Source: Candidatus Shapirobacteria bacterium
GTDB taxonomy: Bacteria > Patescibacteriota > Microgenomatia > UBA12405
Direction: 5' to 3'
Length of the DNA stretch: 64,000 nucleotides
NCBI GenBank assembly: GCA_041658125.1
Contig: JBBAAS010000001.1
Location: 15,917 to 79,916, forward strand
Made by a program: the position numbers and the translations under genes. Below are positions 18,013-61,667 of this stretch, piece by piece. The notes below the pieces were generated by a model, which searched no databases, was not told the DNA's origin, and saw only the letters and a list, made by a program, of their open reading frames with translations. Each line of letters opens with the position of its first letter. The stretch's first letter is position 1.

Positions 18013-18551
18013 AAATAGCCAAGTTGTTGTTGATAATTCTTAACTAAAGTCCAGTCAATAACATTGTCGGCGTCAAAATGATAATTTTTTTGAAAATATA
18101 ACATATCGGCAATTGCCCGCTCGGTATTGGCCAAGAAAACACCTCTGTCGTTTTGAGTTATGCCAAGAGAATTGTTTAAACATTGAGGTTTTAACTGTCT
18201 GACTAAATAGGCATGGTCGTTAATGTTAAAGTTGGCGGGAGTACTGGAAATAAAAGTTATTTTTGCAGGCGATTGGTTAATAATCCCCTCTTTTGCTAAA
18301 ACCGATTCGGTACTTAAATAGCTAAAGTGATTTATGGCCCTAAAGCCTATTTCTACCGGATCCAGTTGACTTAACGGAATGGTGCTATAGAGTCCCTTTT
18401 GAACACTGATCAGTATCTCTTTTTTGATCAGTCGAGCAATGGTTTTATAGAGTGTGTTTTGATTCGAAATATTCCAGAGAACTTTTAAGTCTGAAGTGTG
18501 GAATAATTTTTGTGGTTGTTGGATTAATATACCGATTTTGTCTACAGTCAT
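18009..18551 (-). CDS. abiEi: AbiEi-family antitoxin/transcriptional regulator
   Basis: 180 aa. LISVQKGLYS ... SYLSTESVLAKEGII resembles the AbiEi N-terminal domain (rGvY ... sYiSleSAL). 4-bp overlap with the toxin gene. Confidence 0.6.
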   Translation of the reverse strand: MTVDKIGILIQQPQKLFHTSDLKVLWNISNQNTLYKTIARLIKKEILISVQKGLYSTIPLSQLDPVEIGFRAINHFSYLSTESVLAKEGIINQSPAKITFISSTPANFNINDHAYLVRQLKPQCLNNSLGITQNDRGVFLANTERAIADMLYFQKNYHFDADNVIDWTLVKNYQQQLGYL

Positions 18552-20034: not shown

Positions 20035-21306
20035 TCAATAGCTTTTACTAACTATAAAAACATAATTAGTTGTAGCTGAACCGCCAATATTTAACATCAT
20101 GGAATTATTGGTATTTTTGACTTGGTAACTACCTGCAGTATTTGTAATTTGTTTATGTAAATCTAGCAACATTCTGACTCCGGTAGCTCCGACTGGATGG
20201 CCACATCCGATTAGTCCTCCGCTAGGATTAATTGGATTTTTACCATTAAATTTAATTGAGCCGTTTTCAACGGCCTCATACTCCTTGCCGGGTTTGGTTA
20301 TACCAAAAGCAGAGATAGCGGCATATTCGCTGGAAGTGAAACAATCATGAGTCTCATATAAATCAATGTCATTTTCTTTAAGGTTGGACCGTTTTAGAGC
20401 ATCCAAGACAGTTTGTCTTGTCCAGGGTAATACAAAAGCTTGATCTTGTGATTCTTTTATTTTTTCGGAAAATTGGACAGGGGCAACCCGATGTCCCCAA
20501 CCGATTATTTCAGAAAAATTTTTATTGGTTAAGTTTCTTTTGGTTTTGTAATTTTGTAAATATTTTTTAGAGGATAAAATTACAACTGCAGCGCCATCAG
20601 TAACTTGAGAACAGTCGGCAACGGCAAGTTTACCGCCGACCAACATATTATTTTTAGTATTGCGATTATTGGCATGTTCTTTATTCATGAACCAACTTCT
20701 TGTTTGAGCATTTGGATTATTTTTAGCATTACTGTAATTAATTGCTGAAATCTCGGCTAAACAATCCAAATATTTTTTTTCATCTAAGGAATATTTTTTT
20801 ATGTAAATATCAGCTAATTGACCAAAAAGTTTTGGAAAGGGAAAAGAAATACCTTTAGCCTCTTTATCGTAGTAAGCGGCGGTTCCTAAATAATCTCCAC
20901 AGAGGGCTGAATTGACAGTTTTCATTAATTCAATACCCAAAACTATAGCGACATCGTAATCCCCTGCCCTTATCTTTGAAGAAGCGGAATCGATGGCGAC
21001 TGAACCAGAGGCACAAGCGGCTTCATATCTGGCACTGGGGATGCCATAAAAAGAAGGATTAATTTCGGTAAAAAAAGCACCTAAATGGCCTTGGTTGAAG
21101 TATTGTTCACCATCGAAGTTACCAACAAAGAGACCAATTTTATTTTGTTTATTGAGGGAGAAAATTTCTTTATAGTCCAAGTTGGTATTTAGAAGAGTAT
21201 CTTCAACCACTTCCCGCATCATTGCTAAAAAAGTTTTGCCTTCTTTAACCCAATTTCTTTGAAAGTCTGTTTGAGAACCACCAATTATATAGACGGGGTT
21301 TTTCAT
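20035..21306 (-). CDS. Thiolase (acetyl-CoA C-acetyltransferase, SCP-x/archaeal-type thiolase superfamily)
   Basis: 423 aa. Nucleophile-Cys region [17 protein letters not shown]-terminal [17 protein letters not shown]. Confidence 0.75.
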
Positions 21307-21307
21307 A

Positions 21308-22603
21308 TTAGTTTGCTTTTATATAATTGCGAAAATCTAATTCGTTTTGTAGAGTATAAAATTTTGTTTTTTCAGAGTGTTGTGCGATTTCTTCTGGAAC
21401 TGATAGTTTATATTGTTTAATTAATTTAATTGCTTCTTTTTTGCCGCCTATTAGGTCAATTAAAGCACATGGCGGCAACCAGTTAAATCCATAAGCCATT
21501 ACCCTATCAAGATCCTCTTTATTTTTTACAACCGGTCTTATTAAAGATAGGGAATAACTAATATATCGGGCGAAAAAATATTTAATAATTTCTGATTCAA
21601 AAGTTTTAGTTTTTAACAGTAGTTCAAAAGCTTTGTTGTATTCTCCATTTGAGATTTTTTCTTTAACTTGATCGATAAATTCAATATTAAATTTTGGAAT
21701 TGGTTCATATATTTTTTTATTGATATTAAAAACTAATCTTTGATCACCTTCTTTTTTATAAAAACCTTGCCCACATTTATCACCTAAAGAATTATTTGAA
21801 ATTAAATATTCAACAAATTCAGGCATTTTATATGATTCATGGGCATAGTCGTTGGTTAGATTATAAATATTATTTACGATTGCTTTATGAACATCGAGGC
21901 CGACAAGATCAATGGTAGCGATTGGCGGTAAGCTTCGACCGGTAAACCCCCCTAATAATTTGTCCATAAGAGCAATTCCTCCTTCTTTTTGGTATTTTTG
22001 GGCAAACTGAAGGGTTTCATTAAGTAGCTGGAATCCGATTCTATTGCCAGCAAATCCTGGAGTGTCGTTAACAATAACAACTTTACGGTGTAAAGTTGTT
22101 TGTAAATAATCGAATAGTTCTTTTTGAATTTCGGGATCAGAATTCGGCCCGGCAATTAATTCACAAAGGATCATTTTGTATGGTGGGTTATAGAAATGGG
22201 TGCCGAAATAATGTCTTTGTTGGGTGGGAGTGAAACATTTTGATAATTCGGTAATGGAAAGACCGGAAGAAACGGTAGAGATAATGGTATTGTTTTTGGT
22301 TAATAAAGATATCTTGTGGTTTATTTGTTTTTTGAGTTCTAGATCTTCGGACGTAAGTTCGAAAACCCAATCACTTTCAGACAGACATTCTTTTAGATCA
22401 TCGTAAGTTTTAGGAATAAGTTGATCTTTAATAACATCAGATTTGATGGAGTCAACGGCGATATCAATTCCCTCTTGAGCTTTTTCTAAAGAACGGGCGA
22501 TCATAAATATTTTGGCATTGCCGAAACCAGCGATAATACCAGCGCAATGAGAGCCCATAGCACCGTTGGCGCCGAGAATAGTGACGGTTTTAATCAGAAT
22601 CAT
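21308..22603 (-). CDS. 3-hydroxyacyl-CoA dehydrogenase (NAD-binding 3HCDH family)
   Basis: 431 aa. [23 protein letters not shown]-terminal Rossmann fold and a 3HCDH-like middle region. Immediately upstream of the thiolase with a 1-bp gap. Confidence 0.7.
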
Positions 22604-22610
22604 TTGATTT

Positions 22611-23429
22611 TTATATTTTGGGAAAATGGTAATACTGTTTGAAAGAAGTGGTAGGAAAATCTTTGAGAATAGTTTTCAGTTTATTCAATGTTCTATTGAT
22701 ATTGTAATAGTGAATAAAATATTCTTTGGGTGGTAATTTTATTCTTGGCTGGAGAAGATCAATTTCCCGGGGATGAATATAAAAGATTACCGGTTGTTTT
22801 TGTTGATTTATTTTATGGGTAAAATATTTTATAAAGATAGAAGGGAAACAACGCAAATAAAAACCACCAGAAAATGGAATCCTTTTACGGAAGATTTGAT
22901 AGGTAGAAGGAGGAATTTCTAATATGCCCCCGATAGTACTTTGAAATTGGTCGGCATGATTATCTCCGTAAAGAAAAGTTTTAAAAGGGAAGATACTAGA
23001 TGAATATTTGAAACCATAATTTTTTAAAGTTTGCCAAAACCAGGGAGTTCGATTCTGATCAACGGACCATGCTGGAGCACGATAGCCAATTATTTTTTGG
23101 TGAGTTAAGTTCTCAAGAATATCTTTTGATTCTTTTACATCGTTTTCAAATTGTTTTTGGCTCATGTTGTAAATAAAGTTATGATGGAGTGTGTGACAAG
23201 CAATTTCATGTCCCTGTTTAAAAATTTCTTTGATTAGCTGTGGGTGTTTTTGGGCAATCTCACCGACGACAAAAAAGGTACCAAAATTATTGCTTTGTTT
23301 AAGCAATTTTAATATTTTTTCAGTTGGATCTAAAATTCTGAAGTCGTTGGTTTTTATGGATCGCCCTTCTGGTGAGGAATGATACCAGTCCTCTAGATCT
23401 ACAGAAAAGATATTTGTATACTGCTTCAT
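22611..23429 (-). CDS. Polysaccharide deacetylase (CE4), PEP-CTERM-locus-type
   Basis: 272 aa. IFSVDLEDWYHS N-terminus, HEIACHTLHH metal-binding His motif. Confidence 0.7.
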   Translation of the reverse strand: MKQYTNIFSVDLEDWYHSSPEGRSIKTNDFRILDPTEKILKLLKQSNNFGTFFVVGEIAQKHPQLIKEIFKQGHEIACHTLHHNFIYNMSQKQFENDVKESKDILENLTHQKIIGYRAPAWSVDQNRTPWFWQTLKNYGFKYSSSIFPFKTFLYGDNHADQFQSTIGGILEIPPSTYQIFRKRIPFSGGFYLRCFPSIFIKYFTHKINQQKQPVIFYIHPREIDLLQPRIKLPPKEYFIHYYNINRTLNKLKTILKDFPTTSFKQYYHFPKI

Positions 23430-23490: not shown

Positions 23491-24567
23491 ATGATAACAA
23501 ATAATAAATTTTCGTGGTGTGTTGGCGATTACCAGAGAAAGTATAAAAAAAGTATATTGGGACTATTTAAAAAGGAATATCCAGAATCAGTACTTTGGAA
23601 AGATGAATTTTTTGAGTGGCAACATTTTAAAAATCCGGCTGGAGAATCAATAATTAAACTGGCGATAAATACCAAAGAAGAAGTGGTGGGTTTTTATTGT
23701 GTTTTATTGCAGGATTATTTTATCAACAGAAAACTGTTTCACGGATCAATTTCTTTGAGTACGTTGGTTCGAGAGGATTATAGGGGTATGGGTATTTTTA
23801 CAATATTAGCTCAGGAATGTTACAAAGAGTGTTTTAAAAGAGGTGTCAAGTTTACTTTAGGTTTTCCGAATCAAAATTCATACCCCGGTTTTATTAGAAA
23901 ATTGGGGTTCTTAAATTTGGGTGAATTACCGCTTCTCATAAAACCTTATAGATTGAGTAATTTGGTAGCAGAGAAGCTAAATAGTGGGGTGATGGGGATG
24001 ATGGTGCGGCCAATTGATTTTCTAATAAATTTATTTAATAAAGATAGTTGCTGTGGATTGAGTGAGGATATGACCGATTCATTTCATGATTTGTTTTGGA
24101 GAAAGGCAAGAAAAAAATACCAGATAGTAGCAAATCGGGATGCAAGATTTATTGATTGGAGAACAAAATGGCCAGAAAGAAAATATAAATATTTTTGTGT
24201 CAAAAAAAATAACAAGATTGAAGGATACATAATACTTGGATTATTGGGAACAAAGAATGTAAAAAACGGTTTAATTGTGGATTTTGTGGTTAATGATTCA
24301 TCTGACGCCCAAAGTATTGGAAATGATCTACTGAAGGAAACTAATCATTACTGGAAAATGGAAAATGTTGATCAAGCAGGTTGTTTAATATCGAAAAATT
24401 CCTTTGAATTTAAGTTGTTGAGGAAAAACGGTTATTTTATTTGCCCAAATTTTTTAAAACCTCAACCAATGGTGGCTGTCTTTAAATGGCACGGAAATGA
24501 TTGTCCCTTAGAAGTGTCTGATCTTCAAAAATGGTATATTACCACGATTGATTATGATGTGGCGTAA
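23491..24567 (+). CDS. FemAB-related / BioF2-like (Acetyltransf_6) GNAT-fold acyltransferase
   Basis: 358 aa. Region VVGFYCVLLQDY ... LVREDYRGMGIFTILAQE ... KFTLGFPNQNSYPGF resembles FemAB-like N-acyltransferases found in exopolysaccharide loci. Confidence 0.55.
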   Translation: MITNNKFSWCVGDYQRKYKKSILGLFKKEYPESVLWKDEFFEWQHFKNPAGESIIKLAINTKEEVVGFYCVLLQDYFINRKLFHGSISLSTLVREDYRGMGIFTILAQECYKECFKRGVKFTLGFPNQNSYPGFIRKLGFLNLGELPLLIKPYRLSNLVAEKLNSGVMGMMVRPIDFLINLFNKDSCCGLSEDMTDSFHDLFWRKARKKYQIVANRDARFIDWRTKWPERKYKYFCVKKNNKIEGYIILGLLGTKNVKNGLIVDFVVNDSSDAQSIGNDLLKETNHYWKMENVDQAGCLISKNSFEFKLLRKNGYFICPNFLKPQPMVAVFKWHGNDCPLEVSDLQKWYITTIDYDVA

Positions 24568-24584: not shown

Positions 24585-26057
24585 ATGAAAGTGCTTTTAG
24601 TTACACCCCCATTTTATAGAATTCTGGGGATTTACAATCGGTATTTTCCATTAGGAATTACTCAATTGGGTACTGTTTTAAAAGATAAAGGATATAAAGT
24701 AGCAGTTTATGATGCTGATTATTATTCTGATCCGGACACGATTGATTATTCGCGTATCTCAGATAAGTTTCCCACTTATTTAAAATCTTTTAAAGAAAAG
24801 AACCAAATTTGGAGTGAAGTAATTGAAAACATAAAAAAATGGAAACCAGACGTAGTCGGAATATCCGCTTATACCACTTTTGCTGCTTCGGCTTTTCATT
24901 TAGCAAAATTAGTAAAGGAAAATATTGAAAACTGCAAGGTGATAATGGGTGGACCACATGCGACTGTCAGAGCTGAGGAAATTTTAGAAATTTGTCCTGA
25001 GGTAGATTATGTGGTCAGGGGTGAGGCAGAAGAGACAATGATTGAACTAATGAACCATGTTACTGGAAGGAAAAATGACGTAGAGAGTATTTCGGGAGTG
25101 TCTTTTAGAAAAGGGAAAAAGATTGTCTCGAATGGAGACAGATTGCAACCTAAAAATCTAGATAATTACCCTATGTTGAATAGATCTTTATTGATGAATA
25201 AAAATAAGTTATCATCGGAAGATATGGGTTTAATTATGACTAGCAGAGGTTGTCCGTATAGGTGTACATATTGTGCTTCAACAAAAGGAATTAGATATCG
25301 ATCGATAGGTAGTGTTATGGAGGAAGTCGAGGCTGTTTTTGAGAAATATGGGACGAGACAATTTACTTTTAAAGACGACTCTTTTACTGTAGACAGAAGC
25401 CGAGTGGTTGATTTGTGTAACCGTTTAATACAATGGAAGGTTAAAATAAATTGGGAATGTAACACGAGAGTTAATTTGGTAGATGAAGAACTACTGCGCT
25501 TGATGAAGAAGGCTGGGTGTAATTTTGTTAAAGTGGGAGTCGAGACTGGATCAGCTAGGGTACTTAAAATGATGAATAAGGGAATTAGTTTGGATCAGGT
25601 AAGGTCAGCATCAAAATTGTTTAGAAAGGTTGGATTACACTGGACTGGGTATTTTATGATGGGAGTGGTGGGGGAAACAGAGAAGGATATTCAGAAAACT
25701 GTGGATTTTATGCACGAAATAAAGCCAAACTTGGGTGTTATCGCGGTTTACGAGGCTTTTCCGGGAACTGTAATGTTTGAGGAAGGTTTAAAAAAAAGGT
25801 TGTATAGAGAAAATATGAGCTTGGAAGATTTTTATTCCATGGCTCCAGATAGTTATTATAAGGTTGATCCGAGAGTACAAAATGAAAAAATAACCCCGAA
25901 GAGATTTGAAATTATAAAAAAAGAAGTTAATAAAGAATTTCATCAACAAAACATGATGGTAGGAAATGTGATGGCGATGGCCAGGTCTAAAATAAGAGTT
26001 TATTACAGGGATCCAAAGATATTTTTTGATGATGTAAAAAAGATGTTAAGCTATTGA
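24585..26057 (+). CDS. Cobalamin-binding (class B) radical SAM enzyme
   Basis: 490 aa. N-terminal B12-binding-like Rossmann domain (KVLLVTPPFYRI ... GYKVAVYDAD), radical SAM cluster motif SRGCPYRCTYCAS (CX3CX2C). Confidence 0.8.
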   Translation: MKVLLVTPPFYRILGIYNRYFPLGITQLGTVLKDKGYKVAVYDADYYSDPDTIDYSRISDKFPTYLKSFKEKNQIWSEVIENIKKWKPDVVGISAYTTFAASAFHLAKLVKENIENCKVIMGGPHATVRAEEILEICPEVDYVVRGEAEETMIELMNHVTGRKNDVESISGVSFRKGKKIVSNGDRLQPKNLDNYPMLNRSLLMNKNKLSSEDMGLIMTSRGCPYRCTYCASTKGIRYRSIGSVMEEVEAVFEKYGTRQFTFKDDSFTVDRSRVVDLCNRLIQWKVKINWECNTRVNLVDEELLRLMKKAGCNFVKVGVETGSARVLKMMNKGISLDQVRSASKLFRKVGLHWTGYFMMGVVGETEKDIQKTVDFMHEIKPNLGVIAVYEAFPGTVMFEEGLKKRLYRENMSLEDFYSMAPDSYYKVDPRVQNEKITPKRFEIIKKEVNKEFHQQNMMVGNVMAMARSKIRVYYRDPKIFFDDVKKMLSY

Positions 26058-26058
26058 T

Positions 26059-26790
26059 ATGATTTTTAGAAAAGTTTTGATCTTGATACCGGCGTACAAT
26101 GAAGAGGCAAATATTGCGACTACTATAGCGAATATAAAAAAATTTACGAAAGGGAAAGGCTGGGATATTTTAGTTGTAGATGATGGGTCAAAAGATAAAA
26201 CATATTTAAAAGCAAAAAAGTGTGAGGTTATTGTAGTTCGCCATCCTTTTAATATGGGGTATGGGGTAGCAATACAAACCGGTTATAAGTTTGCTATTGA
26301 TGGAGGATATGACATACTGGTTCAAATTGATGCAGATGGTCAGCATGATCCCAAATATATTCCTAAGATGATCAATACATTACGAAGGGAGAAATTGGAT
26401 GTGGTCATTGGATCAAGATTTCGAAAAAAAACTGATTATCATGCGCCTTTTATGAGAAGATTGGGGATGATACTGTTTAGTTTGATTGTCAGTGCTGTAA
26501 CTCGTAGAAAAGTTACTGATTCGACGTCCGGCTATCAGGTTATTGATAAAAAAGTGTTGAATTTCTTGTCATCTGATTCTTTTCCTTGTGATTATCCGGA
26601 CGCTGACCTGTTAATTATGTTATATTTTGCCGGATTTAAAGTGGATGAAATACCCATGAAAATGTATGAAAATAAAACAGGAAAATCAATGCATGGTAGT
26701 CTCATCAAAAATTTCTATTATGTAATGAAAATGTCTTTATCGATTTTAACGATTGTTCTTAGAAAAGTTACAGGTTTACCAAGTTTTTAA
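26059..26790 (+). CDS. Glycosyltransferase family 2, DPM1/GtrB/ArnC-like polyprenyl-phosphate sugar synthase
   Basis: 243 aa. VLILIPAYNEEANIATTIANI ... DILVVDDGSKDKT ... VQIDADGQHDP (DxD), small soluble GT-A typical of Dpm1/GtrB. Confidence 0.8.
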   Translation: MIFRKVLILIPAYNEEANIATTIANIKKFTKGKGWDILVVDDGSKDKTYLKAKKCEVIVVRHPFNMGYGVAIQTGYKFAIDGGYDILVQIDADGQHDPKYIPKMINTLRREKLDVVIGSRFRKKTDYHAPFMRRLGMILFSLIVSAVTRRKVTDSTSGYQVIDKKVLNFLSSDSFPCDYPDADLLIMLYFAGFKVDEIPMKMYENKTGKSMHGSLIKNFYYVMKMSLSILTIVLRKVTGLPSF

Positions 26791-26792
26791 AT

Positions 26793-27143
26793 ATGCCACT
26801 GGTACAAAAACTATTTTTCTATATTGTAGCCATGTTTTTATTGATGTTAATACTTAACTTAGTGAGAAAGCGAAAGTTGAGAGAAAATTATAGCTTATTG
26901 TGGATTTTCATATCTTTGGTGTTGATATTAATAGTTTTACTTTATCCTTGGTTGGTAAAATTTTCTAACTTATTTTTGGCTAATCCGACATCAATGATAA
27001 TGTTTTGTGGTATGGTAGCTTTATTATTATTAATATTACAGTTATGTTTAATGAATTCAGTTCAGGCGACACAGATAAAAAATTTAGTGCAAAAAATTAC
27101 TCTTTTAGAAGAAAAGGTTAAAAATGTATCTAAGAAAAAGTGA
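26793..27143 (+). CDS. Small 2-3 TM membrane protein (DUF2304-like; GtrA-position partner of DPM1-like GT2)
   Basis: 116 aa. Hydrophobic helices, conserved-looking LNLVRKRKLRENYSLLWI, C-terminal coiled coil. Starts 3 bp after the GT2 stop. Confidence 0.5.
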   Translation: MPLVQKLFFYIVAMFLLMLILNLVRKRKLRENYSLLWIFISLVLILIVLLYPWLVKFSNLFLANPTSMIMFCGMVALLLLILQLCLMNSVQATQIKNLVQKITLLEEKVKNVSKKK

Positions 27144-27191
27144 TTTGATTTATTTATAGACTTTAATGGTTTATATTGGTTAAATATAAGA

Positions 27192-28637
27192 ATGGATAAT
27201 AAAAATAATAATAGAGTTTATTTACTTTATCCTCCTATTTCAAAGAAAGAAAGATACTCGTCGGATTTGGGTAGTGCGGGAGGAGAACAAATTCCCTTGG
27301 GAATTTTTTGTTTGGCTGCTTATTTAAGAGAAAAAGGGTATGAAATGGCGGTTACTGATGGAGAGTCTGAAAAATTAACGACAAAACAAATAACAAGACA
27401 AATTAAAAAATTTGATCCATTTGTAGTTGGAATAAGTTCGACTACGGTTGCTTTTCACAGGGCGTTGGAAATGGCGAAATTAATAAAGAAAAAGTTTCCT
27501 AAAGTAATAATTTTAATTGGGGGTCCTCACGTAACATCAAATTATAAGGATGCTTTATCATTTGGTGTATTTGATTATGGTGTTTTAAGGGAAGGTGAAA
27601 TCACAACAGTTGAATTGTTAAAGACCATAAAGGGCAAGGGTAAAATTGAAGAAGTAAAAGGAATAGCTTATAAAAAAGATGGAAAAGTTATTGTTAATGA
27701 ACCCAGAGAGTACATTAAAAACTTAGATGAATTGCCGTTTCCCGCATATGATTTGATTGAGGATATAAATTTATATACACCTGATTTGTCAAATTATATG
27801 TCAACGCCGGTGGTTAATATTATGACAAGTCGCGGTTGTCCGAATCAGTGTACTTTTTGTGATAGAGCTGTATTTGGTCAGTTTTATAGAGAAATGTCGG
27901 CAGAAAGAGTAGTAGAATTAATAAAATATTTAGTGGAAAGATATAAAGTTCGAGAGATCGATTTTGTTGATGATACTTTCTTGATTAATAAATTACGATT
28001 TAAAAAAATCTTTCGATTACTAAAGGAAGAAGGAATTAAATTTTACTGGACATGTACAAGTAGAGTTAACGTTGTCGATTACGAGATTTTGAAATTGGCT
28101 AAAGAAACCGGTTGTTGGCACATTGCTTTTGGAATTGAGTCGGGTGACGAGGGTATTTTGAAACTGATTAAAAAGAATATTACTATGGAACAAGTGAGAA
28201 AGGCGTTGGGATGGTGTAAAGAACTTGGGATTAAGAGTAAGGGTTACTTTATTGTAGGCCATCCAGGCGATACTTTGGAAACAATAAATAAAACAATTAA
28301 ATTGGCTTATAACTTGCCTTTAGATGATATATTAGTAACCATAAATACGCCAATTCCGGGGTCACCCCAATATTATTTTATTAAGGAATATGGGGATTTT
28401 GATGAGTCTGATTGGTCTAAATTCAATTGTTGGAGGCCGGTGTTTATTCCTAAGGGATTAACGAAAGAAATACTTTTGAAAAAACAAAGGGAAATGTATC
28501 GAAAGTTTTATGTAAGGCCAAGAATTATATGGCGATATTTAAGGGGTACCTTGGGTCGAGGTGGGATGAAGAGGTTAAAATCATTAATGGGAGCGGCTAA
28601 ATATCTGATGTCTAAACCGAACCTGGAGGGTTTATAA
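27192..28637 (+). CDS. Cobalamin-binding (class B) radical SAM enzyme
   Basis: 481 aa. B12-binding-like N-domain (GYEMAVTDGE ... VVGISSTT ... ILIGGPH), cluster motif SRGCPNQCTFCD. Confidence 0.8.
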   Translation: MDNKNNNRVYLLYPPISKKERYSSDLGSAGGEQIPLGIFCLAAYLREKGYEMAVTDGESEKLTTKQITRQIKKFDPFVVGISSTTVAFHRALEMAKLIKKKFPKVIILIGGPHVTSNYKDALSFGVFDYGVLREGEITTVELLKTIKGKGKIEEVKGIAYKKDGKVIVNEPREYIKNLDELPFPAYDLIEDINLYTPDLSNYMSTPVVNIMTSRGCPNQCTFCDRAVFGQFYREMSAERVVELIKYLVERYKVREIDFVDDTFLINKLRFKKIFRLLKEEGIKFYWTCTSRVNVVDYEILKLAKETGCWHIAFGIESGDEGILKLIKKNITMEQVRKALGWCKELGIKSKGYFIVGHPGDTLETINKTIKLAYNLPLDDILVTINTPIPGSPQYYFIKEYGDFDESDWSKFNCWRPVFIPKGLTKEILLKKQREMYRKFYVRPRIIWRYLRGTLGRGGMKRLKSLMGAAKYLMSKPNLEGL

Positions 28638-28649
28638 CCGTAAGTTTAT

Positions 28650-30554
28650 ATGAATTTAGGTATTTATTTAGTTCCAATTGTATTTTTTTTGAAGCTTGGT
28701 TTAGTTGCGTTGGTATTTAGCCTTCCTTTAATTATTGATAGATTAAAGAAAAATCTTTCCGTAGACTTAATCTTAGTTTATTTATTTGGTCAAGCAAATT
28801 TAATATTATCGATTTTTATATACAATAGTATTAATTATTTTTGGGATATCAGAAAAATAAGCATTGTTGTTTTTTCTATTGTAGTTTTGGTTGTGGAGTC
28901 AATACTTGTGTTTATTCTTAATAAGAAAGAGTATCTTGCCGAGAAAAAAAGGTTTGTTTTTGGAGATAATTGGAAGTGGTTTATCATCATTTTTATGATA
29001 GTTACAATTTTTTATGGATGGATAAATTCTTTATATTTTGACCGGCAAGAGAATAAAATATTTAATCCAGGGTATGGGATAAACCATGATTATATTGTTG
29101 TTTTGGGAACGTCAAAGGCGTTTTTTAAATATACTAAGGATAGTAGCCTTTTGATAAGGGATTTGTATTATCATTGTTATGAAGCGGGTTATCCGTGTGG
29201 CGGAACACATATAAGTGCTTATTTCTCAGATTTATTTAAAACAGATGTTTACCTTGTTTACCAACGGATTCTAACTTGGTTGTCTGTGTCGACAATATTT
29301 GTGATTAATTATTTTCTTGTGAAATTTTTTCGGAAGGGAAATTTACTTTCCAATATAGTATTAATTTTGGTCTCAGTTGCCAGCGTATTTAATTTTTTGT
29401 CAATGAGTTTCATAGATGCATCAGTTTTTGGTTCCACTGCAGTAATACCCTTTTTATTTTTATCCATATTTCTGACATTACAGTATATTAAAGAAAAGAA
29501 AAATATATACCTATTGCTAATTTTTATAGTTTTGGTAGACATGGTTTATATTTATACCTATTTTGGTGGTATTTATTATTTATTATTTTTGGCGACGGCT
29601 CTCATAATTTATCGGAGAAAATTTTGGGAAGGCTGGAAAATGGTGAAAATAATTGCTTTACTTTTAATAGCATTTATTTTACCTCTAAATCTGCTTCCAG
29701 CAATAAAATTTTTAACAAAACAAGTTGAGTCTCCAGTGAAGGAGGTAAGCTTGTTTAAAGGGATGAATGGTAATATGGCCGGTTTTAATAATCCGATGAC
29801 TGCTTTTTCAATATGGACATCAAACGCAGATTATAGGTTCTATGAAGCAAATTATTATAATACATGGTTGTTTTTTACATTAATGGCACCGATTATCTTT
29901 TTTTTGTTGGTCTCAGAAAAAGATAAAATTATGCTTAATAAAGAAATATTAGTGATCGCATTACCTTTTGCGATAATGATTGGAGTTGGTTTTTGGATAA
30001 CCAAGTCTTCTTATCAAAGTGGGAAGGCTTTACATTGGTGGTCTGATATCTGGCCTTTAATTTTTTATTTATTGCTTTATAAATCACTTTTAGATAAAAG
30101 GATTGTAATAAGATTATTAGTATTTTCATACTGTTTGATATTTTTTTACTACTCTTTTAAGAGTGCTGTTTTTGCTAGTTCATATTTTGGTAAACCGATT
30201 GTGAAGAGTAATTATGAACTTATGAATTTGGAGCCTGAATTATGTAAAGATGACAGTAAACTTTTATTTTTAGGTAGAGATGAGATGTCTAAATATTTTT
30301 TAGATACCTGTAAAAACATAACTTTTTATTATGACAGGTTTGATAATAATGCCGCTTTCTGGGAGATTATAGCATTAAATAAACTTATTAGTTTGGATCA
30401 GAAATGTGAAAATAATAGTTTGAGTTTAACGAAGATTGATTATAGTAGTTATAATGAAGTGTTAGTTGATAAGTGTTTTAAATTTAATAATCCATCGTAT
30501 GTAATTGAAAAAGAATATGAAAACTACAACTTATGGAAACTTAAAAGCTTATGA
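28650..30554 (+). CDS. Large polytopic membrane protein, possible GT-C-type transferase (GtrC position)
   Basis: 634 aa. >12 predicted TM helices plus a C-terminal soluble domain. No family motif recognised by eye. Confidence 0.35.
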   Translation: MNLGIYLVPIVFFLKLGLVALVFSLPLIIDRLKKNLSVDLILVYLFGQANLILSIFIYNSINYFWDIRKISIVVFSIVVLVVESILVFILNKKEYLAEKKRFVFGDNWKWFIIIFMIVTIFYGWINSLYFDRQENKIFNPGYGINHDYIVVLGTSKAFFKYTKDSSLLIRDLYYHCYEAGYPCGGTHISAYFSDLFKTDVYLVYQRILTWLSVSTIFVINYFLVKFFRKGNLLSNIVLILVSVASVFNFLSMSFIDASVFGSTAVIPFLFLSIFLTLQYIKEKKNIYLLLIFIVLVDMVYIYTYFGGIYYLLFLATALIIYRRKFWEGWKMVKIIALLLIAFILPLNLLPAIKFLTKQVESPVKEVSLFKGMNGNMAGFNNPMTAFSIWTSNADYRFYEANYYNTWLFFTLMAPIIFFLLVSEKDKIMLNKEILVIALPFAIMIGVGFWITKSSYQSGKALHWWSDIWPLIFYLLLYKSLLDKRIVIRLLVFSYCLIFFYYSFKSAVFASSYFGKPIVKSNYELMNLEPELCKDDSKLLFLGRDEMSKYFLDTCKNITFYYDRFDNNAAFWEIIALNKLISLDQKCENNSLSLTKIDYSSYNEVLVDKCFKFNNPSYVIEKEYENYNLWKLKSL

Positions 30555-31354
30555 TTTCAATACCATTTCTTTCTAAGAAAGCCAGTATTCCTTTTCCCCC
30601 TTTGGGTATGAGGGAGCTAGTTGGACCAATCAATACCAGCGATTTTGATAACCCTGAAGGGAAATTAATCTACCCTTATTTTAAAGCGAAAGATTATAAA
30701 AAAGTTTTTGATTTTGGGTGTGGTTGCGGGCGGTTGGCTAGGCAATTACTTATGCAAGAGCCTGTTCCTAATAAATATACGGGAATTGATCTCCATCTAG
30801 GGATGATCAATTGGTGTATCACTAACTTGTCACCCTGTAATAAAAATTTTAAATTTATCCATTACGATGTTTATTATAAAGCCTTTAACCCTACCGGCTC
30901 ATCAAAATTGTTACCTTTTCCGGTTGAACACAATCAATATACTCTAGCTCTTGCGCACTCTGTTTTTACTCATCTGATTGAAAAGGAAGTCGACTTTTAT
31001 TTAACAGAAATTACTAATGTCTTATGTGACCATGGGGTCTTTTTTGCCAGTTGGTTTCTTTTTGAAAAAAAATATTTTCCGATGATGCAGGAATTTCAAA
31101 ATTCTCTTTATATTAACCTAGATGATCCTACTAACGCTGTTATTTATGACAAAAATTGGCTTTTAGATATCTATTCTAAACACGGTTTATCTATCGAGAT
31201 TATTAAACCTCCCGGTGCTCGAGGTTTCCAATGGGTTGTTGTTGCCCGTAAGATTAATAGAAAACACCAGACGATTTTCCCTCAAGACGATGCCCCTATC
31301 GGTATAGTCCGAGCGTCATTACTTAAAAAAGAACCCTACAAAATTGGTTTATAG
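30551..31354 (+). CDS. Class I SAM-dependent methyltransferase
   Basis: 267 aa. Motif I VFDFGCGCGRLARQLL. 4-bp overlap with the upstream gene. Confidence 0.7.
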   Translation: MISIPFLSKKASIPFPPLGMRELVGPINTSDFDNPEGKLIYPYFKAKDYKKVFDFGCGCGRLARQLLMQEPVPNKYTGIDLHLGMINWCITNLSPCNKNFKFIHYDVYYKAFNPTGSSKLLPFPVEHNQYTLALAHSVFTHLIEKEVDFYLTEITNVLCDHGVFFASWFLFEKKYFPMMQEFQNSLYINLDDPTNAVIYDKNWLLDIYSKHGLSIEIIKPPGARGFQWVVVARKINRKHQTIFPQDDAPIGIVRASLLKKEPYKIGL

Positions 31355-31390: not shown

Positions 31391-34120
31391 TCAGAAAAGT
31401 TTGTTGATAATATCAAGCCGTTGTTTGATAAGGTTGCCAATTCTTTCTGGGGAGAAATAAGCAGTAACTTCTTCTTTACTTCGTTTGAGAATAGTATTTA
31501 GTTCGGGAGTAGGAAGGTGATAAATTTTATCCATTAGGAAAGAAGCGTGATCTACGTCCGGATCAGCCCAGGTGGTTCCAGCGGGATATGGTCCAATGTC
31601 TTTAGTGAGTATGTATGGAACATGATTAACAAGAAATGTATTTGAATTAGTTTCAAAATCGGTATTACCACTAAAATTAGTAACAATAACAGGTTTACCC
31701 ATCATGTGGGCGTTGATTAAAGGAATTCCCAATCCTTCGGCTCGATGTAAACTGATATAACAATCACAACTTTTCATAAGTGAAATCATTTCTTTTGAGG
31801 AGATATAACTGTCAATTAAGTGAATTTGACTATTATCACCAATTTCATTTTTAATTTTGTTAAATATTTCGCTGGTCGCCAACTTCGTTGTTTTAATTAG
31901 TAATTGGGTGTGTTTATTATTTACGGAAAATTGTTTGAAAGCTTTAATAAGAGCAAAAGGATTTTTTCTTTGCCAAAACGAAGCGGAGTCAAAAATGTTT
32001 AAAAAAATAAAGTCCTGGGGGGAAGTTTTTATTTTATATTTGGCAAAGTCGAATCTGGGGATAGTTGAAGTTAACGGAAGGGTAAATGAAGGTGGTATAC
32101 AGATAACCGGTTTAGGAGATTTTAGACTTATGGCTTTTTGGACGTATGACGTGGCTGTCCAGATTTCATTTACTGGTTCAAAGTTGGGAGAGTAAAGGTC
32201 GGGAAAGATATCTGATTCCCAGTACCAATAGCCTATATTGTATTTAAATTTAATATATTTAGTATGGAGTTGATTCTCGACAACGGATTTTATTTGATCA
32301 GCATTTACACAAATAAGATTTATGGGATGGTTTGATTTGTTGGTAAATTGGTTTTTTAAAGTCTTATTATCTCTTCTAAGCCATGGTTGTTCAATATTAT
32401 TGAGATTTATGGGTATTTGGGACGATTCAAGAGCTTTTATGATGCCTCTGGCTGATTCCCCTACTCCGCTTTCGGTATCTAAATAACCTGAAATGTTACA
32501 ACCAAGATTGCTGACCAGAGGAAATTGTTTTGAAGGCTTGTTGTTTTTGTAAAGTGAACGAAAAATTTTAGTTTTGGAGAGATACTTATCTAAATAAAGA
32601 AACTTAAGAGAAAGAGTAGCTAAGTATAAATAGTAAGGTAGTATAGGGTTAAATAATAATTTACCGTGCTTGTAGTAAAATTCTTGACTTTTAAAAAGTC
32701 TGATGAGTAATAGATTACGAGAAGCATTGTAATTATTTAAATCTTTTAGGTTTTTATTATAACCGTTGGTATCGGGATTGCGATGGAGAATAATTTTGTA
32801 ACTATTAACAACAAAGTCCGAATTGTTTTTATTCCTTTTATCGGCTTCAAGGGCAAAAATAGTTTGGATGGTCGGGATGGGAATATTTTTATTAAAAAAA
32901 GTCTTAAGCGGACCATTATGAAGTTTATTTTGGTTGTTAATAAAATTCTCCGGTGTATTATAAATTGATTTACCATAACTTAGCGACCAATTTATATAGG
33001 AGTTTAGAAGTTGAAGATTATAAGGTTGTTCCAAAGGGAACTCTTTATGGATTTCGCTAATGGATTCATTTAATAATAAAAAGTAATTGAGTACTTTTGT
33101 ATTATCGGGAACAAGGACAATTTTGGAAAGGCAAGCAAAAAATGAATTTTTTGATTTCGTATCAAAAAGGCTAGAAAATTTATCGTTCCCTGTTGAAATA
33201 ATATGGCGATAAATATCTTTTATTTGAGAGGTAATTTCGACACCATTATCAAAACATTGATAGGGGTAATGGTAGTTTTTTATTTCCGGATGAAGATTAT
33301 TATAGTATGTAATTTGTTTGGCATAGTCCTGGAAAAGTTTATTATAAGGGCCAATATTATCCAAAGTAAAACGGTCTTGGTGTTTAGATAAAATACTTTT
33401 TTCGGGAACAAAACCGCTGAAGTGAAAGAAATAAATATCATTCGGTGAAATTGTTCTGATATATTCATGAAGGTTCCAATAGGCAGTGTCGTATCCTTTA
33501 TCCCTCAAAATATAAGTGTTAAGGAAACTTGGAGCAAAATCCATCCATTTTTGGTCGGTAAACATAAAATTATCGATATCGGAATAGGCATAGTTTTTTA
33601 GTTTATCGGCCCACCACTTTAGGAAAGTAGAAACACTAGTAGAGTTTCTAAAAGCGGCAAATCCGAGATTGTAATAGCCACAACCCATGAAGTCCCATTC
33701 ATTTGGTCTTTTTTTGTCGTTAGTAGGTTTTGTTCGATGGGGAATAATTACACATTCATGATTGTCTAGCTCTTCTAAAATTTTATCGATCTTCTTATAG
33801 AAGCAAATATCCGGATCAATGTATAAAACTTTTTGAGCATCATATTTTTTAAACAACCAACTAAATATGAAGGGTTTAACCGCAGTGGCTAGTTCCATGA
33901 GGCTATATTTAAAACACAGTTCTTTGAAATCACTTATGTTGTCGACTTTAGAGATTGGTACAGCTTGATAATTAGGTGATGTTATACAGTCGTCATCAAT
34001 AAAAAAAACTAAAAATTTGTGATCCGGATGGTATTTTTTATAGCTTTTTGCCAATATTTCGGCTTGAGGATAATAATTCCTGGCGATGATGGTAAAAGCT
34101 AATATTTTTGATTTGTTCAT
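31391..34120 (-). CDS. Multidomain glycosyltransferase: N-terminal GT-A-like nucleotide-diphospho-sugar transferase, central DUF4214-like motif, C-terminal GT4 (GT-B)
   Basis: 909 aa. N-terminal FTIIARNYYPQAEILAKSYKKYHPDHKFLVFFIDDD. Central YKIILHRNPDTNGYNKNL ... LFKSQEF (DUF4214-like). C-terminal ISLHRAEGLGIPLINAHMMGKPVIVTNFSGNTDF (GT4). Confidence 0.6.
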   Translation of the reverse strand: MNKSKILAFTIIARNYYPQAEILAKSYKKYHPDHKFLVFFIDDDCITSPNYQAVPISKVDNISDFKELCFKYSLMELATAVKPFIFSWLFKKYDAQKVLYIDPDICFYKKIDKILEELDNHECVIIPHRTKPTNDKKRPNEWDFMGCGYYNLGFAAFRNSTSVSTFLKWWADKLKNYAYSDIDNFMFTDQKWMDFAPSFLNTYILRDKGYDTAYWNLHEYIRTISPNDIYFFHFSGFVPEKSILSKHQDRFTLDNIGPYNKLFQDYAKQITYYNNLHPEIKNYHYPYQCFDNGVEITSQIKDIYRHIISTGNDKFSSLFDTKSKNSFFACLSKIVLVPDNTKVLNYFLLLNESISEIHKEFPLEQPYNLQLLNSYINWSLSYGKSIYNTPENFINNQNKLHNGPLKTFFNKNIPIPTIQTIFALEADKRNKNNSDFVVNSYKIILHRNPDTNGYNKNLKDLNNYNASRNLLLIRLFKSQEFYYKHGKLLFNPILPYYLYLATLSLKFLYLDKYLSKTKIFRSLYKNNKPSKQFPLVSNLGCNISGYLDTESGVGESARGIIKALESSQIPINLNNIEQPWLRRDNKTLKNQFTNKSNHPINLICVNADQIKSVVENQLHTKYIKFKYNIGYWYWESDIFPDLYSPNFEPVNEIWTATSYVQKAISLKSPKPVICIPPSFTLPLTSTIPRFDFAKYKIKTSPQDFIFLNIFDSASFWQRKNPFALIKAFKQFSVNNKHTQLLIKTTKLATSEIFNKIKNEIGDNSQIHLIDSYISSKEMISLMKSCDCYISLHRAEGLGIPLINAHMMGKPVIVTNFSGNTDFETNSNTFLVNHVPYILTKDIGPYPAGTTWADPDVDHASFLMDKIYHLPTPELNTILKRSKEEVTAYFSPERIGNLIKQRLDIINKLF

Positions 34121-35143: not shown

Positions 35144-36349
35144 TTATTTTATTAAAAGATTTAATTGAGAAGAAAACGTATCATAATTGATGGAACTGAA
35201 GATAGTATACTGTTTGAGTATGTTTTTTACAAAGAATTTTTTAAATAGATGTTGATCAATTTGTTTGTCAAACGAAGGGATAGTGGGTGAAAGGTCATAA
35301 AATGCGGAGGATTGGTTGACAATGATGGGGGTACCGTAGTAAATTGCTTCAAAGTTAACGATTCCCAAACTTTCTTCAATTGAAGGGTTAATAAAGATAT
35401 CGATTTGGGAATAAATTTTGGCTTTATCGGATTCGGGGAAATTATAAATAATTTTTAGTTTGTTGGATTTTAAATAGGATTCGAAGTATTTTTCAATTTC
35501 GGACGAACTGCTGGTTTTGGCGCCAGCAAAAAGAACTTGGTAGCCGGCATCGAGAAGATCTTTAAAGATATAAAGATTTTTTCTCGGGCAAATTTGGCCG
35601 ACATAACCGATAATGGGTTTAGAAAAATTATATTTTCTTTTGGTGTTTATTTTGGCTTGTTTTTGTACTTGGTTAATGGTAAACGGACAATAGGTATTGA
35701 TTATAGTTTTTGACTCTATTATTTGATAATTTTTTATAATTTGTTGTTTTTCGAAATTTGTCAGAAAAATAATTTTGGAGGCATAGTCAAAAGCTTTTTG
35801 AAAAAAGGGAGAGTGATTGTAGTAAGAAACGTTGTGATAGGCAGGCAGAACAATGAGAGGTTTTTGATATTTTTTGGCAAAAACGTAGGCGTCGTAGATG
35901 GACTTGGTAGGCATACCAAAACCCATGATGATGTCTGATTTTTTGATAATGTCGATATCTTGTGGGGTATATTGAAGTATCGGGCCGAAAAAGAATGGAG
36001 AGAAAATACCGAACTTGGTGACAAAACGGTGAAGAAATTTGTTAGCAAACCTTTGGGTTTGACGGTGAAGCGAAAGACGATGGATGTGTGAGAGCTTTAG
36101 CGCGTTGGGGCCGGAGCGCGTTTCGGTGTTGGAGTCAATATAGTTGGAGAAAGTTTTGTAGCTATCCAAAGTTAAACCTTGGCCGGTGAAAACATGAACG
36201 GTAAATTTTTGATCAAGAATTTTTTTGATTTCACCGACGAGATATTCGACACCGCCTTTGGCCGGGGGAAAACAATGGACAAAAATGGAGATAACGGGCT
36301 TAGGGGTGGTCATTAAGATATTGCTGACAGATTTCTTTTGACGGGCCAA
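35144..36349 (-). CDS. Glycosyltransferase family 4 (GT-B)
   Basis: 401 aa. C-terminal FINPSIEESLGIVNFEAIYYGTPIIVNQSS. The start may be the internal Met (MTTPKPVISIF, ~36313), reducing overlap with the upstream ABC ATPase gene. Confidence 0.75.
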   Translation of the reverse strand: MARQKKSVSNILMTTPKPVISIFVHCFPPAKGGVEYLVGEIKKILDQKFTVHVFTGQGLTLDSYKTFSNYIDSNTETRSGPNALKLSHIHRLSLHRQTQRFANKFLHRFVTKFGIFSPFFFGPILQYTPQDIDIIKKSDIIMGFGMPTKSIYDAYVFAKKYQKPLIVLPAYHNVSYYNHSPFFQKAFDYASKIIFLTNFEKQQIIKNYQIIESKTIINTYCPFTINQVQKQAKINTKRKYNFSKPIIGYVGQICPRKNLYIFKDLLDAGYQVLFAGAKTSSSSEIEKYFESYLKSNKLKIIYNFPESDKAKIYSQIDIFINPSIEESLGIVNFEAIYYGTPIIVNQSSAFYDLSPTIPSFDKQIDQHLFKKFFVKNILKQYTIFSSINYDTFSSQLNLLIK

Positions 36350-37031
36350 AATTAATTAAGTTTGAATGTTTCAGATAAATAGCCCTAGGGCAGAATAACT
36401 CAACTTGGGGCATGGAGTGGGAAACAAAAAGAATAGTGACGCCAGATTTTTTAAATTCTTCCATTTTGGTAAAACATTTGGCTTGAAATTCGGTGTCGCC
36501 GACGGCCAGGATTTCGTCAACAATAAGAATTTCCGGATCGACGTGGACAGCGATGCTAAAAGCCAAACGCATATACATGCCGGAAGAGTAATGCTTGATA
36601 GGCTGATCGATAAACTCCTGTAATTCGGAAAAATCGACAATACTTTTAAAATATTGTTCAATTTGTTTACGTTTTAAGCCTAATATGGCGCCATTGAGAA
36701 AAATATTCTCCCGGCCGGTGAGTTCGGGGTGCATGCCGGCGCCAAGTTCAATGAGGGGGGATACTTTACCGCTGACAGTGACTTTGCCTTTGGTGGGTGA
36801 CATAACGCCGGCAATAAGCTTAAGAATAGTAGATTTGCCGGAACCATTGGGGCCGATGATACCGATAGTCTCTCCCCTATCGATGGTGAAGTTAATGTCG
36901 TTAAGAGCGGTGAATTTTTGACGGGTTTGCTCGCCGCGAATCAGAGCCGGGATAAATTCCTTGAAGGTTTTTTGACTTTGAAGGTCAAAATCTTTGGTGA
37001 CATGGGAAAATTTAATAATAGGTTCGTTCAT
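36300..37031 (-). CDS. wzt: ABC transporter ATP-binding protein, Wzt/TagH/KpsT-like (no C-terminal carbohydrate-binding domain)
   Basis: 243 aa. Walker A GIIGPNGSGKSTILKLIAG, signature YSSGMYMRLAF, Walker B ILIVDEILAVGD. Confidence 0.85.
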   Translation of the reverse strand: MNEPIIKFSHVTKDFDLQSQKTFKEFIPALIRGEQTRQKFTALNDINFTIDRGETIGIIGPNGSGKSTILKLIAGVMSPTKGKVTVSGKVSPLIELGAGMHPELTGRENIFLNGAILGLKRKQIEQYFKSIVDFSELQEFIDQPIKHYSSGMYMRLAFSIAVHVDPEILIVDEILAVGDTEFQAKCFTKMEEFKKSGVTILFVSHSMPQVELFCPRAIYLKHSNLINFGPSKEICQQYLNDHP

Positions 37032-37033
37032 AG

Positions 37034-37834
37034 TTAAATGTTGTCGGCGAAGATTTTTTCGCGGGATTTAAAATAGGCAAGACCGACTAAAAGGGTGGCA
37101 AAAGAAAGTAGAAGGGCAATCAGAAGGCTACTATATTTAGGCTCCCCTCCCCCGAGGATAACTTGACGGTAGGCGTTGACAATAACGGCGATGGGATTTA
37201 GCTGAAATAATATACGAAAACGGTCGGGGACAATGTCAGCGGGATAGATAATGGGCGTAAGATACATCCAGAGCGTCAGGATTAGCCCCAGGAGATATTG
37301 AATGTCGCGGTAGAGGAGATTGGCGGCGGCGAAGAACAGAGAAAGGCCGAGAGTAAAAATTTGTTGAATAAAAAAGATGGGAATAACCCAAAGAATATTA
37401 AGGGTAATGGGGATTTGATAAATGATCAGATAGACAATGAGGATAGAGGTGGCAAAGAAAAAATCGATTATTTTGGCGATAATAGTGGAGATTACCAAAA
37501 TGGTGCGGGGAAAATAAATTTTGGTAATAAGAGACGACGAGCCAACAAGCGAATTGCAGGCGGAACCAAGCGAATTGCTAAAAAGAGTCCAAGGCAAAAG
37601 AGCGGTGAAAAGAAAAATGGAATATGGAATATTGGAAGCAGAATTGGTGGGGATACGGAGAATCAGGGAAAAGGCAAAACTCATAACTAACATTTGGGCA
37701 AGTGGACTAAGAATAACCCAAAAATAGCCTAAAATTGATTGTTTGTAGCGGGCCTTGATCTCACGACTGGTCATTTGCCAAAGGAGTTCCCGATGGGCAA
37801 TGATGGCTTTGATTTCTGAAATAAGCAGGAGCAT
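37034..37834 (-). CDS. wzm: ABC-2 type polysaccharide export permease, Wzm/TagG-like
   Basis: 266 aa, 6 TM. N-terminal AHRELLWQMTSREIKARYKQSILGYFWVILSP, typical of Wzm. Confidence 0.8.
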   Translation of the reverse strand: MLLLISEIKAIIAHRELLWQMTSREIKARYKQSILGYFWVILSPLAQMLVMSFAFSLILRIPTNSASNIPYSIFLFTALLPWTLFSNSLGSACNSLVGSSSLITKIYFPRTILVISTIIAKIIDFFFATSILIVYLIIYQIPITLNILWVIPIFFIQQIFTLGLSLFFAAANLLYRDIQYLLGLILTLWMYLTPIIYPADIVPDRFRILFQLNPIAVIVNAYRQVILGGGEPKYSSLLIALLLSFATLLVGLAYFKSREKIFADNI

Positions 37835-61616: not shown

Positions 61617-61667
61617 TAAGTTTAAGAAGATAGATTAGTTTAATATAAACTTAATTGTAGGTATAAA

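Follow-up and report, generated by a model that had tools for sequence, protein, structure and literature searches.

What does an operon make when genes for two cobalamin (B12)-binding radical S-adenosylmethionine enzymes (B12-rSAMs) lie among those for a glycosyltransferase and two membrane proteins? The question is raised by positions 24585–31354 of a 64,000-nucleotide stretch of the genome of a Candidatus Shapirobacteria bacterium (contig JBBAAS010000001.1), here called the window. An original prediction, made from the sequence alone, had taken this interval for a Gtr-like lipid-linked glycosylation cassette interrupted by two rSAM genes and followed by a methyltransferase gene. Our analysis suggests that the operon encodes a GacI/GacJ/GacL-type module for extracytoplasmic glycosylation by three components, equipped with radical tailoring enzymes and set in an ATP-binding cassette (ABC) transporter-dependent glycan locus, a reading to which we assign a probability of roughly 0.7. 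The genes of the co-directional block, with protein lengths in amino acids (aa), are the following.

23491–24567, + strand: double-GNAT protein, 358 aa, first gene of the block
24585–26057, + strand: rSAM-A, 490 aa, PF02310 and PF04055
26059–26790, + strand: family 2 glycosyltransferase (GT2), 243 aa, PpgS/DPMS-like
26793–27143, + strand: DUF2304 protein, 116 aa, PF10066
27192–28637, + strand: rSAM-B, 481 aa, PF02310 and PF04055
28650–30554, + strand: polytopic membrane protein with a predicted GT-C fold, 634 aa, C-terminal domain with Cys
30551–31354, + strand: class I S-adenosylmethionine (SAM) methyltransferase, 267 aa, Methyltransf_25/11/12

The open reading frame (ORF) table reproduced the predicted coordinates and strand exactly. 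Seven co-directional genes had been counted; the interval itself holds six, and the seventh is gained only by including the GNAT gene, which ends 17 bp upstream of it. The gaps between the six genes are 1, 2, 48, 12 and -4 bp, TGA serves as a stop codon within the operon, and the block is bordered by a divergent gene (22611–23429, - strand) and a convergent GT4 gene (31391–34120, - strand). Neither promoter-like sites (77 in the cluster versus 72 ± 8 in shuffled sequence) nor terminator-like sites (7 versus 8.5 ± 2.6) are in excess; the scan speaks neither for nor against a single transcript, and independent transcription of the rSAM genes is unsupported. The earlier domain calls for the B12-rSAM pair and the methyltransferase stand. 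Both rSAM proteins match PF02310 and PF04055, the motifs CPYRCTYC and CPNQCTFC (CxxxCxxC) are visible in their sequences, and both are predicted to be class B (cobalamin-binding) radical SAM enzymes. The methyltransferase is a weak class I match (Methyltransf_25/11/12 at 32–34 bits), and its start overlaps the stop of the preceding gene by 4 bp.

The GT2 sets the character of the module. Its top NCBIfam match is PpgS, the polyprenyl-phospho-N-acetylgalactosamine (GalNAc) synthase (NF058614), at 123.8 bits against a cut-off of 370, followed by dolichyl-phosphate hexose transferase, AglJ, PgfS and ArnC. In a sequence search of the PDB the closest solved proteins were the Pyrococcus DPMS (5mlz, 7.6e-20), GtrB and ArnC, and the sequence shows DAD and DDG motifs. 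These matches bear out the original call of a DPM1/GtrB-like enzyme and support its placement, by sequence, in the GacI/PpgS-like class of polyprenyl-phosphate glycosyltransferases.

The small membrane protein encoded next to it has three transmembrane helices, and its sole Pfam match is DUF2304 (PF10066, 68.5 bits against a cut-off of 25.5); the Pfam search returned no match to the GtrA family (PF04138). A DUF2304 gene lies directly 3' of the GT2 gene in loci L003, L004, L006, L007, L010 and L171. The DUF2304 proteins GacJ and Rv3632 bind and stimulate their GT2 and are not flippases: in the presence of GacJ the Km for undecaprenyl phosphate drops from 18.7 to 1.1 uM, the product of GacI being N-acetylglucosamine (GlcNAc)-phosphate-undecaprenol, and Rv3632 stimulates PpgS (bioRxiv 10.1101/180810). 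By analogy, the 116-aa protein is presumed to be a GacJ/Rv3632-like activating partner of the GT2. The original prediction had put this protein in the GtrA position and suggested that the GT2 neighbourhood be checked; the pairing is indeed kept in every related locus, but the protein belongs to DUF2304, not GtrA, and is presumably no aid to flipping. Because of this, GacI/GacJ/GacL or PpgS/Rv3632 is the right comparison, rather than Gtr or Arn.

For the third component, the 634-aa polytopic protein, neither Pfam nor NCBIfam gave a match. Of ten distant relatives, nine likewise had no Pfam match at E<=0.1, the tenth giving a sub-threshold match to DUF6541, and a profile of the family produced only chance-level matches to PDB sequences. 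The family is also rare: five homologues were found in an index of 5.8 billion proteins and 38 in an exhaustive profile search of 1.84 billion representatives, while a word-indexed search with a 20-sequence profile added only one fragment. A first structure model, built from a six-sequence alignment, was weak (pLDDT 59.8), and the model was rebuilt from a 20-sequence alignment. Fold comparison of the model with solved GT-C enzymes gave TM-scores of 0.41–0.46, and the fold matches include PIG-U and GAB1, subunits of the glycosylphosphatidylinositol (GPI) transamidase that have a GT-C-like fold and are not glycosyltransferases. The modelling thus supports a GT-C fold, as had been proposed for this protein, and points to a new and rare GT-C family with no sequence-family match.

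Several residues of this protein are invariant across the 20 aligned sequences, namely P140, Y142, N145 and D147 (in the motif PGYxINHD), G374-N375, W389, and S453/Y455/K459. The loop that holds the PGYxINHD motif is 86 residues long and comes after a strongly basic one, and for that reason the motif is predicted to face outward. When the protein was aligned by hhalign with a PMT_2-like protein of the window, INHD147 fell on the 'WDE' of loop 1 of the latter, with a probability of only 54%; on account of this alignment D147 is a candidate for the catalytic Asp. The C-terminal ~110 residues make up an alpha/beta domain of their own, and the Cys residues in it are conserved in close homologues, C586 being invariant in all 20 sequences.

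We examined the loci of the four closest full-length homologues of the 634-aa protein (L003, L004, L006 and L007). Their gene contents, and that of the more distant locus L171, are given below.

L003: GNAT, rSAM-A, GT2, DUF2304 (located by ORF scan), rSAM-B, GT-C
L004 and L007: GNAT, rSAM-A, GT2, DUF2304, fused epimerase/GFO-oxidoreductase, 189-aa protein, methyltransferase, GT-C
L006: methyltransferase, rSAM-A, GT2, DUF2304, GT-C, PAPS reductase, APS kinase
L171: GT2, DUF2304, two methyltransferases, GT4, GT-C (24% identical); no rSAM

The order rSAM-A, GT2, DUF2304, variable cassette, GT-C is kept in five diverged Patescibacteria genomes, that of the window included, and a near-identical contig (L091) has the same arrangement. 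Since the order recurs in four other genomes whose GT-C proteins are only 44–63% identical to that of the window, it is not a product of chance. The stable frame consists of GT2, DUF2304, variable cassette and GT-C; in the close relatives rSAM-A is always added upstream, its gene ending 1–4 bp before that of the GacI-like GT2 in five loci of the 634-aa family and in L091. The image of a cassette interrupted by two rSAM genes therefore needs revision: both genes do lie in the operon, but rSAM-A is the constant upstream partner of the GT2 and only rSAM-B fills a variable slot.

That slot, between DUF2304 and GT-C, has three alternative contents, of which rSAM-B is one. Among module loci, rSAM-B occurs only in the window and in L003 (8541–9983). 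Its two copies share 85% identity, against ~63% for the flanking rSAM-A and GT-C proteins of the same two loci, which suggests that the rSAM-B cassette has been exchanged or moved recently. The top NCBIfam match of rSAM-B is HpnJ (TIGR03471), near full length at 244.9 bits against a cut-off of 577.6, and it is 32% identical to rSAM-A. Orthology of rSAM-B with the second rSAM of a Bacteroidales locus (L009) was considered and rejected, as the 30% identity between them is at the level of paralogues.

Genes at the edges of the module suggest amino sugar chemistry. The 358-aa protein contains Acetyltransf_1 at residues 28–140 and a second GNAT domain at 224–294 (Pfam), its gene is directly upstream of rSAM-A in L003, L004, L007 and L091, and it is a probable N-acyltransferase for an amino sugar. 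On the other strand lies a divergent set of genes.

20035–23429, - strand: thiolase, 3-hydroxyacyl-CoA dehydrogenase, and polysaccharide deacetylase with DUF3473 (Pfam)

This set is found beside the module in L003, L007 and L091, in part in L004, and is absent from L006. From its domains it would likely provide a local supply of 3-hydroxybutyryl-CoA and the de-N-acetylation of an amino sugar. Together with the double GNAT protein, it suggests that an amino sugar may be de-N-acetylated and re-acylated, possibly with 3-hydroxybutyrate. The downstream tailoring gene varies between loci: in the place of the methyltransferase, L006 has PAPS reductase and APS kinase genes, and elsewhere convergent AlgX/MBOAT genes follow directly.

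The surroundings of the module supply a plausible acceptor. Pfam scans of the window proteins indicate that all 64 kb form a single glycan locus with ~20 GT2/GT4 genes, a Wzy_C protein, several PMT-like GT-C genes, a UDP-sugar dehydrogenase, and FkbM and class I methyltransferases. The nearest homologues of the window proteins are in Patescibacteria and in metagenome-assembled genomes of Ca. Shapirobacteria. The features of the wider locus that bear on the argument are these.

31391–34120, - strand: 909-aa protein with an N-terminal nucleotide-diphospho-sugar transferase-like region, DUF4214 and a C-terminal GT4 domain
36300–37031 and 37034–37834, - strand: Wzt/Wzm-type ABC-2 exporter, PF00005 ABC_tran and PF01061 ABC2_membrane
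41498–43060, 43062–44522 and 50253–51722, - strand: three further B12-rSAM genes, B12-binding and radical SAM domains
46370–47539, - strand: SPASM radical SAM gene, by domain match

The ABC-2 exporter pair also closes the homologous loci L003 and L004, and Wzm/Wzt would carry an acceptor glycan across to the outer side of the membrane. Each of the three additional B12-rSAM genes and the SPASM gene adjoins GT2 or methyltransferase genes. Pairwise identity among the five B12-rSAMs of the window is only 24–33%, and five different subfamilies are therefore present in one glycan locus.

The closest characterised system is GacI/GacJ/GacL (with GacK) of the Streptococcus pyogenes group A carbohydrate (Rush et al., bioRxiv 10.1101/180810). 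In that system GacL, a GT-C, moves GlcNAc onto polyrhamnose, for which export by an ABC transporter has been proposed (bioRxiv 10.1101/180810). The two systems share a short GT2 of the class making sugar-phosphate-polyprenol (predicted here from sequence), a DUF2304 protein (~113 aa, three transmembrane helices) encoded immediately downstream of it, and a GT-C fold transferase combined with a glycan exported by an ABC transporter. They differ in that the GT-C family of the window has no Pfam model and only 38 representatives, that no Wzx-like GacK was found, that two B12-rSAMs, a GNAT protein and a methyltransferase are encoded inside the operon, and that the hosts are Patescibacteria here and Lactobacillales there. 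The mycobacterial system that adds galactosamine to arabinogalactan, consisting of PpgS (Rv3631), Rv3632 and a GT-C, is also close, as the GT2 has its best NCBIfam match in PpgS and DUF2304 is common to both. In the mycobacterial pathway the lipid-linked GalNAc is de-N-acetylated before transfer, which parallels the polysaccharide deacetylase beside the module, and we know of no radical SAM enzyme in that pathway. In contrast to Gtr (GtrA/GtrB/GtrC) and Arn (ArnC/ArnD/ArnE-F/ArnT), the small protein here is DUF2304 and not GtrA or ArnE/F, and the GT2, at 243 aa, falls ~80–100 residues short of the solved chains of GtrB and ArnC (322–363 aa), which is consistent with an absence of their C-terminal transmembrane helices. 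A last point of comparison is the hopanoid cyclitol ether pathway HpnI/HpnK/HpnJ, in which a glycosyltransferase adds GlcNAc to a lipid, a deacetylase follows, and a B12-type rSAM is proposed to rearrange the lipid-linked amino sugar. HpnJ is the best match of rSAM-B, yet at under half of the cut-off, and hopanoid genes are absent here; the deacetylase of the window (Polysacc_deac_1/DUF3473) we take to be of a different family from HpnK. The resemblance to HpnJ may thus be treated as a lead for the chemistry and not as a sign of membership.

Since all elements of the Gac scheme except a dedicated flippase are present, we take the operon to be a module that adds side-chain or terminal decorations to the Wzm/Wzt glycan. 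In the cytoplasm, with the DUF2304 protein (26793) assisting, the GT2 encoded at 26059 would load polyprenyl phosphate with a sugar taken from a nucleotide donor; this sugar is probably an amino sugar. The lipid-linked sugar would be flipped across the membrane by a separate factor and then passed by the 634-aa GT-C (28650) to the glycan that Wzm/Wzt exports. Which sugar is transferred would be decided by rSAM-A, rSAM-B, the GNAT protein, the deacetylase and 3-hydroxybutyryl-CoA genes, and the methyltransferase. A possible role for rSAM-A could be to modify the sugar before, or independently of, its loading onto polyprenyl phosphate, for example at the stage of the nucleotide sugar, the adjacent GT2 being specific for the modified sugar. 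By analogy with class B rSAM enzymes in general, C-methylation would be the most likely rSAM chemistry.

The stage at which rSAM-A acts has to be judged from its family. Its NCBIfam matches are BchE (189 bits, cut-off 481), ApyD (187) and HpnJ (181.4), all far under the cut-offs, and the closest solved relatives of both rSAM-A and rSAM-B are AprD4, 9ccb, TokK, OxsB and CysS. There are 2311 homologues of rSAM-A at E<=1e-30, those listed being 47–60% identical over the full length, and their hosts include Omnitrophota, Planctomycetota, Bacteroidales, Schekmanbacteria, Parcubacteria and others. Neighbourhoods were collected from 80 metagenome loci by means of a C-terminal sub-alignment specific to rSAM-A (55 non-redundant, 50 usable), and a background set of 80 loci centred on other B12-rSAM paralogues (25–37% identical) came from a generic-motif genome scan. 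The gene immediately downstream of rSAM-A encodes a GT2 in 34 of the 50 usable non-redundant loci; 26 of these GT2s are ordinary chain-type enzymes (best NCBIfam matches HpsN, WcaE and rhamnosyltransferase), 5 are GacI-like and 3 are of a third type. A GT4 gene upstream and a Bac_transf priming transferase gene downstream are common. The GacI-like/DUF2304 pair lies <=5 kb from rSAM-A in 9 of the 55 non-redundant loci; in counts that were not de-duplicated it accompanies 14 of 73 rSAM-A loci versus 0 of 80 paralogue loci (Fisher p = 1.5e-5). The family is widespread and, judged by these neighbours, mostly sits beside chain-building GT2 genes and is not specific to lipid-linked sugars. In the literature we found no relevant work that connects B12 radical SAM enzymes with polysaccharides, O-antigen, polyprenyl compounds or Patescibacteria.

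A different B12-rSAM subfamily is encoded directly upstream of the GacI-like/DUF2304 pair in L093, L112 and L120. In L112 (8777–10912) and L120 (6386–8593), two loci from outside the Patescibacteria group, a gene for a 711–735-aa polytopic protein comes after the pair. These proteins were rejected as members of the 634-aa family, as the hidden Markov model of the family gave no match, and they have no Pfam match either; they may represent another unclassified GT-C in the same position.

With these neighbourhoods in hand, the competing explanations can be weighed. The proposal of the original prediction was that rSAM-A, rSAM-B or both C-methylate or rearrange a polyprenyl-phosphate-linked sugar before it is flipped, and in an extended form the deacetylase and GNAT protein would work on the same intermediate. 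The placement of rSAM-A 1–4 bp ahead of the GacI-like GT2 speaks for this, as do the other B12-rSAM subfamily at the same position in L093, L112 and L120 and the location of the variable cassette between the donor synthase and the GT-C. There are also precedents: HpnI, HpnK and HpnJ act as glycosyltransferase, deacetylase and rSAM on lipid-linked glucosamine, HpnJ being the best family match of rSAM-B, calditol synthase is another case, and lipid-linked sugars are deacylated by ArnD and in the PpgS pathway. Most orthologues of rSAM-A (~50% identical), however, have no GacI-like GT2, and a chain-type GT2 adjoins in 26 of 50 loci; the substrate of the family therefore cannot be solely a polyprenyl-phosphate monosaccharide. 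With rSAM-B also at less than half of the HpnJ cut-off, we regard the proposal as unlikely, though worth keeping in view. The chain-type neighbours of most rSAM-A genes are more in keeping with an enzyme whose product is a modified activated sugar and whose gene adjoins that of the GT2 using this sugar. For rSAM-A taken by itself, a nucleotide sugar is our tentative choice of substrate, held at somewhat less than even odds; a lipid-linked sugar is possible though doubtful, and the finished chain is improbable. A bolder form of the lipid-linked proposal would see in the DUF2304/GT-C slot a hot spot of remodelling enzymes for the sugar borne on polyprenyl phosphate; here a B12-rSAM would carry out C-methylation or an HpnJ-like, carbocycle-forming rearrangement of a de-N-acetylated and re-acylated lipid-linked amino sugar, rSAM-B being the closest to HpnJ and rSAM-A perhaps also taking part. 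We consider this rather unlikely; if true, it would provide GT-C enzymes with a kind of donor so far undescribed and would reveal the function of the large B12-rSAM family found beside GT2 genes in many anaerobic phyla.

At the other extreme, the rSAM genes could be unrelated to the module, tailoring the main chain on undecaprenyl diphosphate, as the three further B12-rSAMs of the locus would, and sharing the region simply because it is one glycan locus. Five B12-rSAMs and one SPASM rSAM are indeed scattered among its GT2, GT4 and methyltransferase genes, rSAM-A elsewhere lies between a GT4, a chain-type GT2 and a priming transferase, and the distant module homologue L171 manages with no rSAM. 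Against this stand the adjacency of rSAM-A and the GacI-like GT2, which survives at GT-C identities of 44–63% despite changing surroundings, and the enrichment of the GacI-like/DUF2304 pair at rSAM-A loci (p = 1.5e-5, from the non-de-duplicated counts given above), and we judge such independence to be improbable. A third alternative concerns the 634-aa protein, which might be a Wzy/WaaL-type polymerase or ligase, a flippase, or a non-catalytic scaffold with a GT-C-like fold. Its lack of a sequence-family match, its modest TM-scores to solved GT-C enzymes and the presence of PIG-U and GAB1 among its fold matches would allow this; we hold the alternative to be very improbable. As to what the original prediction had named as telling against itself, namely no GT-C-like fold in the 634-aa protein, a small protein not conserved with the GT2, or rSAM genes transcribed independently, the model, the six DUF2304 pairings and the promoter and terminator scan gave no instance of any of the three.

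Some points do weigh against the preferred reading of a GacI/GacJ/GacL-type decoration module. The GT2 lies far below the equivalog cut-off of PpgS, and its sugar is not assigned by that match. None of the window proteins scanned (>=100 aa) is a Wzx/Polysacc_synt or GtrA flippase. As acceptor, a polysaccharide, an S-layer protein and a lipid are all conceivable. The close coupling of rSAM-A to the GacI-like GT2 fits a lipid-linked substrate equally well. The catalytic steps, the acceptor and the rSAM stage are all inferred, the last from co-occurrence only, in an organism that is uncultivated. With regard to flipping, a 307-aa protein with LPG_synthase_TM (PF03706), encoded ~11 kb from the module at 12872–13795 (+ strand), is a possible flippase candidate; its family includes the flippase part of MprF.

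The logic of three-component glycosylation is already known; what is new is the GT-C sequence family, the occurrence of the system in Patescibacteria, and the stable linkage to a widespread, uncharacterised family of B12-rSAMs. The module probably makes an unusual surface sugar. If the preferred reading is correct, a sequence-orphan family is added to the GT-C superfamily, and ultra-small Patescibacteria decorate their surface by the same logic as GacI/GacJ and a GT-C. The multi-phylum rSAM-A family near GT2 genes would then point to an unrecognised radical chemistry in surface glycans, with C-methylated or rearranged sugars as products, and the compact operon would offer a defined gene set for testing in vitro. 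Five different B12-dependent enzymes in one locus would also create a demand for cobalamin, and because this lineage is not known to make cobalamin, synthesis of the surface glycan would depend on a cofactor supplied by the host.

Some further features of the window were observed. The gene for the 909-aa GT4 protein is on the opposite strand and downstream of the module in every related locus, directly convergent with it in the window and past the AlgX/MBOAT pair in L003, L004, L006 and L007. At 55320–63471 (- strand), five tandem genes encode polytopic membrane proteins of 544, 522, 529, 540 and 416 aa, two of them with PMT/PMT_2 matches, a third with a weak GT87 match and the remaining two with none; another PMT-like gene is at 4234–5661. 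The tandem array looks like a set of GT-C paralogues, which may mean that this very small genome encodes many distinct steps of extracytoplasmic glycosylation. A scan of the whole window for Rfam families gave zero matches. In the middle of the glycan locus, at 17278–18551 (- strand), is a toxin-antitoxin-like pair composed of an AbiEii-type nucleotidyltransferase toxin (244 aa) and an overlapping upstream 180-aa partner with no family match. The GC content of the window is 31–41%, and almost all of its 2-kb bins show a strongly positive GC skew (+0.1 to +0.35), regardless of the strand on which the genes lie.

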